A stretch of 10,003 nucleotides of DNA from a virus (lineage: Duplodnaviria; Heunggongvirae; Uroviricota; Caudoviricetes): IMG/VR virus record IMGVR_UViG_2711768001_000003; one strand, written 5' to 3'. A program made the position numbers and the translations under genes. Shown in pieces: positions 2,567 to 4,871 of the stretch (the stretch's first letter is position 1; each line of letters begins with the position of its first letter). The notes below the pieces were generated by a model. It saw nothing but the letters and a program-made list of their open reading frames with translations. It did no database searches and was not told where the DNA came from.

Positions 2567-2570
2567 GTGC

Positions 2571-2600
2571 TTGACCAGACACATTGTCCGGGGCTATATT
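2571..2600 (+). promoter_or_regulatory. Candidate late promoter PR' (sigma70)
   Basis: TTGACC (2571-2576), an 18-nt spacer, then TATATT (2595-2600), beginning 5 nt after the Q stop codon. Lambdoid PR' lies in this position. The Q-binding and pause elements are not resolved. Confidence 0.6.
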
Positions 2601-2606
2601 CCTCAC

Positions 2607-2684
2607 GCGCCAGCAAAATCTGGCGTCGGGATTGGAACCCCGGATAGAGACCGCGACAGACACACGCCGCGAGCGTGTTTTTTA
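2607..2684 (+). ncRNA. Predicted short PR'-to-tR' transcript (lambda 6S RNA / StxS-like), about 77 nt
   Basis: Inferred from the predicted TSS about 7 nt after the -10 and the intrinsic terminator at 2662-2684. It contains a 5' hairpin CGCCAG-CAAAAT-CTGGCG (2608-2625) and a second imperfect hairpin at 2626-2644. The ends are predicted, not observed. Confidence 0.4.
2662..2684 (+). terminator. Rho-independent terminator (candidate tR')
   Basis: Stem ACACGC (2662-2667) / GCGTGT (2673-2678), 5-nt loop CGCGA, followed by a T-run (TTTTTTA). Confidence 0.6.
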
Positions 2685-2811
2685 TTGTCGTATGCACGCG
2701 CACATCTGAATTATGGTGGGGCGCATGGGGGAGCTGAAAAGCTCGCCGGTCGGTTTCCCGGTAGTTCCAACCCTGTGCGTCTCACCACCCGATGATTGGA
2801 ACCTGACGGTG

Positions 2812-2840
2812 TTGACAGTTTCAGGTTTGCAGTTTACATT
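2812..2840 (+). promoter_or_regulatory. Candidate sigma70 promoter for the ORF6N-domain gene (moron promoter)
   Basis: Perfect -35 TTGACA (2812-2817), 17-nt spacer, -10 TACATT (2835-2840, 4/6 match). Confidence 0.4.
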
Positions 2841-3040
2841 TCCCCGCGGTGCTCAAAACACCTCGAAAGCGGTATCCACACCCGATAGCCATGTGGTTTT
2901 TTTGTGTCCAGAATTCTTGGTTTATGACCGGGTGTGCGGCTAATACAATACCAGCAATGGAAATACGCCCGCCGACTTTCGACGGTTTTGAGCGCCCGGT
3001 CACCCTCTCAAAAGGGGTAAATCAAAATATTCGAAAGGAC

Positions 3041-3610
3041 ATGTCTATGAATCGCACGTCTATTGAAAAACTCCCGTCACTTACGCATAACCATCTTCCT
3101 GTCATGACAACAGAGCTGCTGGCTGATTTGTACGGAACAGAGCGCCAGCGTTTGACAAACAATTTCAATCGAAACAAAGAACGGTTTATAGAAGGTAAAC
3201 ATTTTTTCCTGATAGAAGGTGATGCGTTACGAGAGTTGAAGAACGAAAACTCTTTAAGAGTTTCTGTGAAAATTGCCCGTAACGTTCGCTCCCTCATCCT
3301 CTGGACAGAACGTGGCGCAGCCCGTCACGCCAAAATGCTCGAAACCGATCAGGCGTGGGAAGTGTTCGAAAAACTGGAAGACTGTTATTTCAACCAGAAA
3401 CAGCCACCAGCGGCACAAAACACATCTATCGAAAATGATGGATGCGCATTACTGAGCCACTTCGATAAACACGGTCAGGTTGAGTTCACGGAAAAGGTAC
3501 CCGCCGATGCGATGGTATGTACTCTGGAACGGTTTAAATTTTATCTGGAGCAACACGGGTGGATCGTTGCCCGTAAAGAGCAACTGGTGGAGCGGTTGAT
3601 GCGGTTTTAA
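3041..3610 (+). CDS. ORF6N-domain (KilA-N-like DNA-binding) protein, putative antirepressor-like; C-terminal half unassigned
   Basis: LPVMTTELLADLYGTERQRLTNNFNRNKERFIEGKHFFLIEGDALRELK...SLILWTERGAARHAKMLETDQAWEVFEKLEDCYF fits the ORF6N pattern. AAGGA at 3035-3039 favours ATG 3041 or, with better spacing, ATG 3047. The ORF-track GTG at 2849 adds 64 residues that do not look like protein. Confidence 0.8.
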   Translation: MSMNRTSIEKLPSLTHNHLPVMTTELLADLYGTERQRLTNNFNRNKERFIEGKHFFLIEGDALRELKNENSLRVSVKIARNVRSLILWTERGAARHAKMLETDQAWEVFEKLEDCYFNQKQPPAAQNTSIENDGCALLSHFDKHGQVEFTEKVPADAMVCTLERFKFYLEQHGWIVARKEQLVERLMRF

Positions 3611-3685
3611 AAATTTTTTCCGAAAACTTTACGATCGTAAAAAGTTGAATATCCTGTTAAGAGTGGTTACTACGCCACACAGCTT

Positions 3686-3711
3686 AAACCCGCCGATGAG
3701 CGGGTTTTTTT
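3686..3711 (+). terminator. Rho-independent terminator downstream of the ORF6N gene
   Basis: AAACCCGC (3686-3693), loop CGATGA, GCGGGTTT (3700-3707), extending into a run of 8 T. Confidence 0.8.
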
Positions 3712-3761
3712 ATACCTGAAAAACGGCACAGGACGTTAAACGTGCTGGTGGTCAGATGAGT

Positions 3762-3790
3762 TTGCAGATGTGATGACATATGGTTATTAT
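3762..3790 (+). promoter_or_regulatory. Weak candidate promoter for the tRNA array
   Basis: TTGCAG (3762-3767), 17-nt spacer, TATTAT (3785-3790). The predicted TSS is a few nt before the first tRNA at 3800. The -35 matches only 3/6. Confidence 0.3.
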
Positions 3791-3799
3791 TCTGCCTCC

Positions 3800-3876
3800 G
3801 GCCCTTTAGCTCAGTTGGTCAGAGCGAGCGACTCATAATCGCCAGGTCGCTGGTTCAAGTCCAGCAAGGGCCACCA
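3800..3876 (+). tRNA. tRNA with CAT anticodon, most like tRNA-Ile2 (lysidine-modified, reads AUA; ileX/ileZ-like)
   Basis: It folds as a cloverleaf: acceptor GGCCCTT/AAGGGCC, anticodon loop CTCATAA, T-arm GCTGG-TTCAAGT-CCAGC, encoded CCA. The anticodon and T arms resemble recalled E. coli ileX far more than elongator tRNA-Met. Confidence 0.85.
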
Positions 3877-3877
3877 A

Positions 3878-3954
3878 CCACCACTAGCTCATCCGGATAG
3901 AGCATCAACCTTCTAAGTTGACGGTGCGAGGTTCGAGTCCTCGGTGGTGGGCCA
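3878..3954 (+). tRNA. tRNA-Arg (anticodon TCT, reads AGA/AGG)
   Basis: Cloverleaf: acceptor CCACCAC/GTGGTGG, D-arm GCTC-ATCCGGATA-GAGC, anticodon arm TCAAC-CTTCTAA-GTTGA, T-arm CGAGG-TTCGAGT-CCTCG, discriminator G, encoded CCA. It has an unusual C1:G72 pair and diverges from host argU. It starts 1 nt after the previous tRNA. Confidence 0.85.
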
Positions 3955-3956
3955 GC

Positions 3957-4032
3957 GCCGACTTAGCTCAGCAGGCAGAGCAACTGACTTGTAATCAGTA
4001 GGTCACCAGTTCGATTCCGGTAGTCGGCACCA
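3957..4032 (+). tRNA. tRNA-Thr (anticodon TGT)
   Basis: Acceptor GCCGACT/AGTCGGC, anticodon loop CTTGTAA, encoded CCA. It differs from recalled E. coli thrU by only two D-loop bases. It starts 2 nt after the previous tRNA. Confidence 0.88.
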
Positions 4033-4035
4033 TAT

Positions 4036-4110
4036 GCGGGCATCGTATAATGGCTATTACCTCAGCCTTCCAAGCTGATGATGCGGGTTCGATTCCCGCT
4101 GCCCGCTCCA
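4036..4110 (+). tRNA. tRNA-Gly (anticodon TCC)
   Basis: GCGGGCATCGTATAATGGCTATTACCTCAGCCTTCCAAGCTGATGATGCGGGTTCGATTCCCGCTGCCCGCTCCA is, as far as I recall, identical to E. coli glyT. It starts 3 nt after the previous tRNA. Confidence 0.9.
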
Positions 4111-4243
4111 GCGAGATTTGAGACGAAGGTTGTTATTTGCACTGACACAATATTGTGTGGGAATGTCTGACTCCTTACCATCTCCTGTTCTGTGATGTTG
4201 TTTTGTTGCAGTTCCAGTGCTCTTTTTTCAGCACCAGAATGGT

Positions 4244-4769
4244 NNNNNNNNNNNNNNNNNNNNNNNNNNNNNNNNNNNNNNNNNNNNNNNNNNNNNNNNN
4301 NNNNNNNNNNNNNNNNNNNNNNNNNNNNNNNNNNNNNNNNNNNNNNNNNNNNNNNNNNNNNNNNNNNNNNNNNNNNNNNNNNNNNNNNNNNNNNNNNNNN
4401 NNNNNNNNNNNNNNNNNNNNNNNNNNNNNNNNNNNNNNNNNNNNNNNNNNNNNNNNNNNNNNNNNNNNNNNNNNNNNNNNNNNNNNNNNNNNNNNNNNNN
4501 NNNNNNNNNNNNNNNNNNNNNNNNNNNNNNNNNNNNNNNNNNNNNNNNNNNNNNNNNNNNNNNNNNNNNNNNNNNNNNNNNNNNNNNNNNNNNNNNNNNN
4601 NNNNNNNNNNNNNNNNNNNNNNNNNNNNNNNNNNNNNNNNNNNNNNNNNNNNNNNNNNNNNNNNNNNNNNNNNNNNNNNNNNNNNNNNNNNNNNNNNNNN
4701 NNNNNNNNNNNNNNNNNNNNNNNNNNNNNNNNNNNNNNNNNNNNNNNNNNNNNNNNNNNNNNNNNNNNN
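4244..4769. other. Run of 526 N (assembly gap or masked sequence)
   Basis: Counted directly from the sequence: the first n is at 4244 and the last at 4769. Confidence 1.
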
Positions 4770-4871
4770 ATTGGTGTGCTGGGAAGTCTGCTTCTGGGGC
4801 TTCTGACTTATCTGACAAATCTGTATTTCAAAATAAGAGAAGACAAGCGTAAGGCTGCGAGAGGTGAATAA
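4770..4871 (+). CDS. S: Phage-21-type class II holin (pinholin S21-like), 3' 33 codons only; the 5' part lies in the N run
   Basis: The visible [33 protein letters not shown] matches the recalled C-terminus of S21/EssD (...[33 protein letters not shown]). The stop TAA overlaps the endolysin ATG as TAATG. A 71-aa holin would start near 4656. Confidence 0.85.

Follow-up and report, generated by a model that had tools for sequence, protein, structure and literature searches.

What fills the interval between the late antiterminator gene Q and the holin gene in the virus record IMGVR_UViG_2711768001_000003 (Caudoviricetes), and which part of it is under Q control? The window, that is, the whole stretch of DNA that was analysed, is 10,003 nucleotides (nt) long; the interval runs from position 2567 to 4871, and the features described below lie on the plus strand. 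An earlier note on this DNA had placed the late promoter and its terminator (PR'/tR') next to Q, and had described as Q-controlled cargo a stand-alone ORF6N-domain gene with its own promoter and a strong terminator, a four-tRNA array and about 412 nt of unreadable sequence. We give a probability of about three in four to the reading that three known modules make up 2567-4871 as a mosaic, within a prophage remnant of Shigella sonnei and related strains. Module A (2567-3627) would be an autonomous antirepressor cassette of the P1-immI/Gifsy-1-isrK type, with two tandem regulatory tiers, inserted between Q and its cognate PR'. Module B (3628-4110) would comprise a PR' of the Shiga toxin (Stx) phage type with a tR'-like hairpin, and a tRNA array with its own promoter. 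Module C would comprise a non-coding spacer (about 0.55 kb) with many terminator-like hairpins, followed by an S21/SAR-endolysin/Rz cassette.

The ORF6N-domain gene (3047-3610, 187 amino acids (aa); PF10543, E=9e-21) and the four-tRNA array (3800-4110; ARAGORN, Rfam) are indeed present. The interval also holds additional, separately organised units, and independent promoters are plausible, through homologues, for the cassette (promoter P1) and for the tRNAs. However, the homologue of the Stx-phage PR' does not adjoin Q but sits at 3628-3716, 3' of the ORF6N gene. Overall, the island is a new combination of known modules and is largely ordinary; only a putative translational gate of the sRNA-Xcc1 type and the insertion site between Q and PR' go beyond current description.

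An sRNA-Xcc1-type RNA ahead of the ORF6N gene

The 480-nt gap between Q and the ORF6N gene is filled with four full-length Rfam matches above their gathering scores (scan of 2400-4900). Hence, the ORF6N gene does not stand alone but is the protein-coding end of an immI/isrK-type cassette with antisense RNAs. The RNA abutting the gene belongs to the sRNA-Xcc1 family (2926-3009; RF02221, 77.4 bits versus a gathering score of 53, full length, model positions 1-87), and its 3' end lies 37 nt before the ORF6N start codon. It is made of an outer stem around two hairpins, followed by a 3' ACCC tail. According to the cmscan consensus structures, this architecture (outer stem, two hairpins and an ACC-rich 3' tail) is shared with C4, the antisense RNA of the upstream tier. 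Both RNAs have a tRNA-like outer stem with ACC(A/C) behind it, the sole observation that bears on maturation by RNase P.

The loop of Xcc1 hairpin 2, CTTTCGA (2976-2982), is complementary to two copies of the heptamer TCGAAAG. Copy 2 (3031-3037) overlaps the Shine-Dalgarno sequence AAGGAC (3035-3040) of the ORF6N gene. Copy 1 (2863-2869) is located upstream of Xcc1 in an IsrK-analogous leader, leader 2 (2848-2903), directly after a conserved hairpin (GGTGCTCAAAACACC, 2848-2862); the leader ends with a weak terminator-like hairpin followed by T7 (2876-2903). A promoter-like site, P2 (TTGACA-17-TACATT, 2812-2840; 10/12 in the scan), precedes this leader and is kept in Escherichia coli EC12. The C4 block meets the Xcc1 block at P2, with homology breakpoints at 2799 and 2848.

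In EC12, pairwise alignment shows the Xcc1 loop as CTACTG instead of CTTTCG, and both target copies (3031-3037 and 2863-2869) as TCAGTAG instead of TCGAAAG, which makes a three-way compensatory change. The survey was extended to 80 loci with ORF6N relatives (at most 58% identity) from other species, 60 of which were scanned with Rfam. The RNA directly upstream of the ORF6N gene is Xcc1 in 29 of the 60, isrK/C4 in 14 and a P22-type sar in one; in another locus (L042), C4 lies about 600 nt upstream of the gene. In the 29 Xcc1 loci, which are in prophage-like contexts, the Xcc1 match ends 27-56 nt before the tblastn match to the ORF6N gene. The layout of leader 2 is repeated in 25 Xcc1 loci besides the window, the target copy covarying with the Xcc1 loop.

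Pairing was measured as the length of exact complement to the hairpin-2 region, across 26 distinct variants, after a version with 10 loci. When the 47 nt just upstream of the gene were tested, 24 of the 26 variants had an exact complement of at least 6 nt to the Xcc1 loop. This complement abuts the Shine-Dalgarno sequence in all the listed matches except that of L039, where a stretch within the coding region gave the longest match. The 26 variants represent about 20 different loop/target sequences. For the downstream copy, the complement averages 6.96 nt in cognate pairs versus 4.48 nt in non-cognate pairs, and for the upstream leader copy 6.81 nt versus 5.40 nt; in each case, none of 100,000 permuted pairings was as good. 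Two other measures were replaced: a definition of the hairpin-2 loop from minimum free energy (MFE) folds, which were inconsistent between single sequences, and duplex energies including the stems, which were noisy (the cognate pair was the row minimum in 3 of 10 cases only, although the permutation test was still significant).

Such covariation between loop and target is the signature of an antisense RNA with its target sites, organised like c4 with a1b1 and a2b2. In the immI operon of P1/P7, the antisense RNA is processed from the transcript of its own target, and target copies are found both upstream and downstream of it. The downstream copy covers the ribosome-binding site ahead of the antirepressor gene, and the loop sequences set heteroimmune specificity. 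This operon (c4, a/b targets, icd and ant) was reportedly described by Citron and Schuster in 1990 and by Biere et al. in 1992. The window likewise has target copies on both sides of the antisense RNA, the downstream one at the ribosome-binding site of an antirepressor-type gene. Unlike P1, however, it encodes an ORF6N protein instead of Ant and has no icd. In addition, the RNA abutting the gene is of the sRNA-Xcc1 family and presents a hairpin loop, whereas C4 uses the single-stranded b' segment.

The Xcc1 pairing thus implies a putative C4-like translational gate on the ORF6N gene. More generally, we consider it likely that Xcc1-family RNAs, instead of being free-standing 'virulence' sRNAs, form a second, unrecognised class of C4-like cis antisense immunity RNAs. 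They would be processed from the leaders of ORF6N-type antirepressor genes, the hairpin-2 loop pairing at the Shine-Dalgarno sequence to block translation and the leader copy competing for that loop, with the loop/target sequence as a variable specificity determinant (about 20 variants). As a corollary, such cassettes would insert preferentially at the exact Q-PR' junction, and IsrJ-like RNAs would be displaced PR' leaders. In the literature on sRNA-Xcc1, we did not find such a gate described; the only mention found was a passing remark that Xcc1 lies upstream of an ORF6N gene in APSE phages. Elsewhere, sRNA-Xcc1 is treated as a virulence-linked, trans-acting sRNA of Xanthomonas and Xylella. 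The integron-cassette setting of the Xanthomonas type does not apply here: in the window as in the 29 of 60 loci, Xcc1 stands upstream of ORF6N genes in prophage-like contexts. A translational gate on antirepressors would give sRNA-Xcc1 a concrete and testable function in cis.

Two of the surveyed loci deserve mention. In Entomohabitans teleogrylli (L023), two Xcc1-ORF6N units stand in tandem, with Xcc1 at 3137-3220 and 3708-3792. In the first unit, the leader copy AACAAACAG mismatches the loop CTTTCG while the copy next to the Shine-Dalgarno sequence matches it, so that the leader looks recombinant. In Pectobacterium brasiliense, a P22-type sar match (47 bits versus a gathering score of 43; L073:3381-3452, minus strand) lies directly upstream of an ORF6N homologue; the ORF6N family would then be subject to antisense control of three kinds.

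What is being gated is a matter of protein identity. ORF6N is a DNA-binding fold related to KilA-N. The product could accordingly be a DNA-binding regulator of the KilA-N/Bro kind, or a protein directed at the host (toxic or anti-defence); the RNAs would then hold back something harmful instead of controlling a lysis-lysogeny switch. For the C-terminal 65 residues, the only PHROG matches are of unknown function or annotated 'transcriptional regulator', no repressor gene was found nearby, and the evidence on AnrP, the Gifsy-1 homologue, is indirect (a rise in antQ mRNA and phage release). We nevertheless judge this alternative unlikely. The protein matches PHROG 2379, annotated 'anti-repressor', over 187/187 positions (E=4e-85). 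It is 49% identical, full length and collinear (187 versus 187 aa), to STM2616/AnrP of Gifsy-1, and 49% identical to the protein of E. coli VL40; its N-terminal domain also occurs in Ant/AntB of Stx phages. In Gifsy-1, AnrP increases antQ operon transcription and can induce the prophage without the isrK locus (PMC4825925). Tight antisense control of antirepressors has precedents in P1 (c4) and P22 (sar), the latter also found upstream of one ORF6N homologue. We therefore favour a putative antirepressor homologous to AnrP. Because no repressor gene lies nearby and insertion sequence (IS) elements flank the element, it would probably act in trans, on another, co-resident prophage.

The isrK-C4 tier, its relatives and the state of the prophage

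Tier 1 starts with the promoter-like site P1 (TTGACC-18-TATATT, 2571-2600; 10/12 in the scan), homologous to the Gifsy-1 isrK promoter, from which transcription would start on the first base of IsrK (2607). The IsrK-type short RNA (2607-2683; RF01394, 77.5 bits versus 50, full length; terminator scan and fold) ends in an intrinsic terminator (stem 2662-2678 and T-run). Target copies for C4, c4-a1b1, match at 2594-2646 (RF03163, 50.1 bits versus 46.7), with the b1 core GGGATTGGAACCCC at 2628-2641. The C4-type antisense RNA follows (2709-2792; RF01695, 71 bits versus 45, model positions 1-87); its MFE is -44.9 kcal/mol, with z=-5.0 relative to shuffled controls. Its b' segment GTTCCAACCC (2764-2773) pairs with b1 GGGATTGGAAC. 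A second copy of the target, b2 (GATTGGAAC, 2794-2802; string position and alignment), is followed by P2 and not by a ribosome-binding site. The b' segment and the b1 and b2 copies change in concert between loci (GGAAC in the window, GGCGTC in Gifsy-1 and Nil2, CGAAC in F765), as is expected for the known C4 family. The small open reading frames (ORFs) 2571-2795 and 2713-2943 were rejected as genes; they have no PHROG matches or spurious weak ones, and overlap the structured RNAs.

The closest precedent for this tier is Gifsy-1, in which the isrK promoter is constitutively active and drives transcription of anrP (Hershko-Shalev et al. 2016; PMC4825925). There, the read-through mRNA is translationally silent, the short IsrK activates its translation via the upstream orf45, and a stable processed RNA, STnc1160, covers orf45 (PMC4825925). 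STnc1160 corresponds to our C4 match. On the coding strand of Gifsy-1, the order is Q (STM2617), a1b1/IsrK, C4, STM2616 (AnrP, 187 aa), IsrJ, tRNA-Arg, IsrI, gogA and holin. Gifsy-1 and the window have in common Q, a cassette promoter, IsrK with a1/b1 and a terminator, a C4-type RNA, a 187-aa ORF6N protein and then a short promoter-proximal RNA, tRNA(s) and lysis genes. Window 2584-2799 is 83% identical in DNA to Gifsy-1, and IsrK, its promoter and its terminator follow Q as in the isrK locus. Within C4 lie the AUGs equivalent to those of orf45; counted along the P1 transcript they are at +107 and +119, positions that match Table 1 of PMC4825925 to the nucleotide.

The two loci also differ. 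The Q protein is Q82-like in Gifsy-1 but related to Stx-phage Q/Q21 in the window, IsrJ is replaced by a Stx-type PR' segment, and one tRNA stands against four. Above all, the window has 250 extra nt (P2, leader 2 and Xcc1) between C4 and the gene, because of which the translational coupling of orf45 to anrP cannot operate as in Gifsy-1. Instead of ending at the start of the ORF6N gene, the orf45-equivalent frame stops at 2943, 104 nt before it, and instead of covering the ribosome-binding site of a coupled ORF, as in the P1-type immI, b2 is 245 nt away from the ORF6N start. A role for translation of this 76-codon frame in unwinding Xcc1 was considered and dropped, the frame being 44 codons long in EC12.

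How this arrangement came about is suggested by the Stx phages Nil2 and 2851, which carry isrK, C4, antA, [promoter or IS629], Xcc1 and antB in the nin region, upstream of roi/ninG/Q. Their order of isrK-C4, then promoter, Xcc1 and an antirepressor with an ORF6N N-terminus, is that of the window, and both blocks are 77-84% identical. The isrK-C4 block of Gifsy-1, VL40, Nil2, 2851 and F765 matches window 2565/2584-2799/2821, and the Xcc1-antB block of Nil2 and 2851 matches window 2848-3397. However, antA, which separates the RNA tiers in Nil2 and 2851, is absent from the window, where the fused cassette lies downstream of Q. By alignment, the window and EC12 (87% identical to it over 2501-3700) look like the Nil2/2851 arrangement with antA lost. 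The loss of antA would explain why C4 and b2 now precede P2, leader 2 and Xcc1 rather than a ribosome-binding site.

These features lead us to propose the following working scheme. In the resident state, P1 and P2 would be constitutive, and most of their transcripts would stop early, as IsrK and as an RNA of about 55 nt from leader 2. In tier 1, P1 would produce IsrK with the a1/b1 copies, and read-through would give the C4 antisense RNA and the b2 copy. In tier 2, P2 would produce the short leader with target copy 1, and read-through would give the Xcc1-type RNA and the ORF6N mRNA. The Xcc1 loop CUUUCGA would then pair with UCGAAAG over the ORF6N Shine-Dalgarno sequence and turn translation off. 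The leader copy of the heptamer would compete for Xcc1 as a decoy, so that the balance between short and long transcripts would set the output, as IsrK does for anrP in Gifsy-1. Once made, the ORF6N protein would inactivate a lambdoid repressor, probably that of a co-resident prophage. More speculatively, an antirepressor retained by a defective prophage of S. sonnei could induce other lambdoid phages resident in the same cell, Stx phages among them, in the manner of the Gifsy antirepressors in Salmonella.

The locus itself is widespread. In the assembly collection, 3,937 indexed blocks contain the identical ORF6N protein. All eight listed places are chromosomal and carry the locus, window 1-4243 being 98.1-100% identical; four of the eight (L011, L012, L013 and L015) are 100% identical over this part, and L012, L013 and L015 are also 99.9% identical from 4770 onward. 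One of the carriers, CP022455, is S. sonnei 2015C-3794 (PMC8627651). The combination of cargo, which the earlier note did not recognise, is therefore neither rare nor new: kindred arrangements are carried by Gifsy-1, where the locus has been dissected experimentally, and by E. coli VL40, and the exact locus by S. sonnei. The condition under which the note would regard its own view as refuted, a frequent arrangement with annotation in known phages, thus applies. Lambdoid prophages are well known to have antirepressor cassettes and tRNAs ahead of the lysis genes and after Q, and the present locus occurs frequently in Shigella and E. coli.

Several observations weigh against the proposed reading. 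Tier 1 looks uncoupled, b2 no longer adjoining a ribosome-binding site, and the length of the orf45-equivalent frame is not kept (76 codons in the window versus 44 in EC12); for both reasons, tier 1 may be vestigial. The terminator-like hairpin of leader 2 folds poorly on its own (z=+0.96), and 15 of the 60 scanned ORF6N loci have no upstream Rfam RNA at gathering score. The window contains no repressor gene. Copies of IS elements flank the element in relatives, and it may be defective. At the displaced late promoter, the -10 element TATCCT is weaker than TATCAT of Sp5, and the hairpin at 3686-3711 is only assumed to be a terminator because the StxS part and the mapped Sp5 tR' are absent. Finally, the masked stretch before the holin gene is unreadable in the window itself and differs in length from that of relatives.

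Some of these points would equally suit a decaying relic, namely a defective prophage with an uncoupled tier 1, in which the ORF6N gene and the RNAs are functionless and the identity between copies reflects clonality only. No ribosome-binding site is left at the b2 target of C4, and conservation of the upstream ORF is lacking; in relatives, the element is bordered or interrupted by members of the IS3 family, the start of the portal gene looks frameshifted, and purifying selection is not measurable among relatives that are 100% identical. Yet the ORF6N reading frame is intact, and so are Q, the terminase and the lysis genes. Moreover, EC12 shows 87% identity in DNA but 90% in protein, and its loop and targets have changed together at three sites, which requires selection on the Xcc1 pairing after the lineages split. 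On balance, a functionless relic appears improbable, and we retain a two-tier cassette in a remnant prophage.

Position of the cassette between Q and the probable late promoter

Q (2180-2566, 128 aa; PF06530 Phage_antitermQ, E=2e-52) forms the left border of the cassette. It is related to the Q proteins of Stx phages, being 79-82% identical over 126 aa to those of Min27, Lahn1, P13368 and others, and is a distant match to the Q21 structure 6P18 (E=3e-7). The protein has 144 aa in Min27/Sp5 (L098:1504-1938); the last 16 or so codons of the Stx-phage Q, which overlap the PR' -35 element, are replaced here at the cassette junction. A Q of comparable length (127 aa) is found in mEp332, a viable phage.

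The putative late promoter, homologous to that of Stx phages, is found after the ORF6N gene (3628-3655; -35 TTTACG at 3628-3633, -10 TATCCT at 3650-3655), 1.06 kb from the Q stop codon. Window 3628-3716 is identical at 75/90 positions to the PR' region of Sakai Sp5 (L100:812-900). In Sp5/Min27, the end of Q contains TTTACG-16-TATCAT, followed by GATAAGAGTGGTTAC...GAACCCGCCGATGCGCGGGTTTTTTT. Sy et al. mapped the PR' start of Sp5 by differential RNA-seq and its tR' by Term-seq, 258 nt apart (PMC7547250). Counting 258 nt back from the second Sp5 terminator leads to 7 nt after TATCAT (L100:846-847), which aligns with window 3662-3663. A short PR' transcript would hence start at about 3662 and end at 3711 (fold of -18.3 kcal/mol, z=-3.25), with a tR'-like hairpin at 3686-3711 (AAACCCGC...GCGGGTTT followed by T7; terminator scan) that is homologous to Min27/Sp5. 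The promoter and strong terminator once ascribed to the ORF6N gene can be reconsidered in this light: P2 provides a promoter-like site, whereas the terminator, although a real hairpin, is this hairpin of the PR' region. A weak Trp_leader match at 3640-3713 (24.9 bits versus a gathering score of 41) is the same hairpin and was rejected as a chance match.

In the Stx phages Sp5, 933W and Min27, the order is Q, PR', StxS, tRNAs (ileZ, argN, argO) and stx (PMC7547250). The window shares with them the Q family (about 80%), a PR' whose -35, -10 and first 50 transcribed nt are 83% identical, the tRNA promoter and ileZ. In contrast, it has neither the StxS body, nor the tR' at +258, nor the stx genes; only the hairpin from +25 to +50 is present, the tRNAs after ileZ differ, and the 1.06-kb cassette parts Q from PR'.

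As judged from this homology, the cassette (2567-3627) sits between Q and PR', upstream of the late promoter. Placed there, the ORF6N unit should not come under Q control through PR'. The same insertion site recurs independently in other prophages. What comes behind the ORF6N gene in VL40 stands directly behind the DUF1133 antiterminator in the cassette-free FDAARGOS_944. In Gifsy-1, the IsrJ promoter and IsrJ, which come after anrP, are homologous to sequence that, in phages of Klebsiella, Enterobacter and Escherichia, overlaps the Q 3' end and continues beyond it. In the Klebsiella phage ST11-VIM1phi8.1, the match to the IsrJ segment begins 17 nt before the Q stop codon and is followed by tRNA-Asn and the holin gene. 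The IsrJ homology extends over L004:33406-33480 in Gifsy-1, against L101:1201-1289. On this basis, IsrJ may be the '6S/StxS-like' leader RNA made from PR' in Q82-type phages, which the isrK-anrP cassette has separated from Q. Taken together, VL40, Gifsy-1 and the window place the cassette exactly between Q and the promoter-proximal late leader in three Q families.

The P1-IsrK-C4 unit, for its part, is found downstream of three unrelated antiterminator families (Q82-like in Gifsy-1, DUF1133 in VL40, and the window Q), and in cassettes with no Q upstream, in the Stx phages Nil2 and 2851 (nin region) and F765 (near int). The P1 hexamers are invariant in six aligned loci, including cassettes that do not adjoin Q. 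Hence, P1 cannot be a Q-specific site. It is very unlikely, then, that PR'/tR' adjoins Q in the form of P1 and the IsrK terminator, with IsrK as a '6S-like' PR' RNA and the ORF6N gene, tRNAs and spacer all as Q-dependent cargo: P1 does begin 4 nt 3' of the Q stop codon, as PR' does in lambda-like phages, with a strong consensus match and a short terminated RNA behind it, and the Gifsy-1 isrK promoter is constitutive like PR' (PMC4825925), but its hexamers stay the same whatever the antiterminator, a PR' homologue (83%) of this very Q family is retained after the ORF6N gene, and equivalent displaced PR' segments exist in VL40 and Gifsy-1.

With the cassette upstream of PR', Q dependence would be restricted to the tRNAs, the spacer and the genes for lysis and packaging, and the tRNAs would also be transcribed from their own promoter. 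Without Q, a short PR' RNA would end at 3711; Q-modified polymerase would read on through the tRNAs, the terminator-rich spacer, S, R, Rz and the packaging genes. The view of the Q-to-S interval as a Q-controlled cargo slot therefore holds in part. The slot after PR'/tR' and before the holin accommodates the tRNA array and the spacer (3800 to about 4655), but the ORF6N cassette lies upstream of the PR' homologue. Since three Q families show a cassette between the late promoter and Q, it can be wrong to annotate PR' immediately behind Q or to assume Q control of the next gene. Such displacement is relevant to predicting the Q-induced cargo of prophages, including toxins.

tRNA array, spacer and lysis genes

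The array consists of tRNA-Ile2(CAU) (3800-3876), tRNA-Arg(UCU) (3878-3954), tRNA-Thr(UGU) (3957-4032) and tRNA-Gly(UCC) (4036-4110). All four were detected by ARAGORN and by the Rfam tRNA model, with 56-70 bits and the anticodons CAT, TCT, TGT and TCC. A promoter-like site, TTTGCA-18-TATTAT (3761-3790; 9/12 in the scan), precedes them and is kept ahead of ileZ in Min27/Sp5; in Sakai Sp5, the primary transcription start site driving the tRNAs from its counterpart has been mapped (PMC7547250). The first tRNA is identical to Sp5 ileZ2 at 74/77 positions. It is annotated as tRNA-Ile in the VL40 copy, which is 98.7% identical over window 3700-4243. Like the window, VL40 combines the same four tRNAs with an ORF6N gene and a class II holin.

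All four tRNAs read A-ending codons (AUA, AGA, ACA and GGA). In the window genes, a small sample, ATA, AGA, ACA and GGA occur at 5.8, 4.7, 15.1 and 11.3 per 1000 codons; relative to usual E. coli values, the excess is modest, and codon usage was not retained as decisive support for the tRNAs. The same four-tRNA array stands right after the antiterminator, without the ORF6N cassette, in FDAARGOS_944, and also in CFSAN029787 with a variant fourth tRNA. Shorter variants of the array are widespread upstream of class II holins in E. coli. Related E. coli arrays exchange members (Lys, Val) and retain the Ile2 tRNA and the promoter. The slot between PR' and S is a classical location for tRNAs, as seen in phage 21 and Sp5/Min27. 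The late region of phage 21 is organised as Q21, pR', terminator, tRNA-Asn, tRNA-Thr, S21, R21 and Rz. Like the window, it has tRNAs between the late terminator and an S21 pinholin/SAR endolysin cassette, and its lysis genes are 93% identical. It differs by its Q, PR' and tRNAs, and has neither the antirepressor cassette nor the 0.55-kb spacer.

The spacer that follows the array is readable in the window from 4111 to 4243, contains no credible ORF there and is 98.7% identical to VL40. Beyond, the sequence is masked by 526 N (4244-4769). The value of about 412 nt put forward earlier does not give the length of this run; it corresponds, correctly derived, to the part preceding the start of a 71-codon holin at 4656. 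The masked stretch could be read through relatives, not in the window itself: those with 99.9-100% identical flanks hold 660-661 nt in its place (L012:5198-5858). This difference would mean that masking altered the length or that 135 nt are deleted in the source strain.

In relatives, this stretch comprises a spacer of about 547 nt and the first 114 nt of a gene for a 71-codon holin of the S21 type. The spacer (L012:5065-5745, corresponding to window 4111 to about 4655) contains seven terminator-like hairpins versus 0.9 expected, one of which, a 10-bp stem followed by T6, lies just before the ribosome-binding site of the holin gene. No Rfam match and no ORF supported by a protein family were found in the spacer of relatives, which has almost no homologue in 50,697 phage records. 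A 98-aa ORF (L012:5242-5538), called in some assemblies, was rejected as a gene of the masked stretch; it has no PHROG match and is unannotated in RefSeq copies.

The right border of the interval is the 3' end of an S21-type pinholin gene (4770-4871), which encodes the C-terminal 33 aa and matches PF04971 (E=2e-13); the full 71-aa gene is found in a relative at L012:5745-5960. With PF04971 on the readable 33 aa and PF00959 and PF03245 in addition, the lysis genes form an S21 pinholin/SAR endolysin cassette. Upstream of the antirepressor cassette, the window encodes a DnaB-like helicase, a small ORF, RusA and then Q. After the 3' end of the holin gene come a SAR-type lysozyme, Rz, an HNH endonuclease, the small and large terminase subunits and the portal protein.

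At the edges, the element looks like an IS-bounded prophage remnant. In relatives, genes of IS3-family transposases are located directly upstream of the DnaB-like gene (window 1-60; L010-L017), and in two strains an IS interrupts this gene at window 403-406. At the other end (8580-9918), the N-terminus of the portal protein is seemingly split over two frames, MFFSGLFQRK... at 8762-8896 and a long frame at 8671-9918 that contains the full PF04860, pointing to a possible frameshift or alternative start. No head protease or capsid gene follows the portal gene within the window, and the prophage may be truncated there. The last segment, 9919-10003, carries a hairpin with a T-run (ccggaaac...gtttccgg ttttttt) after the portal stop codon.

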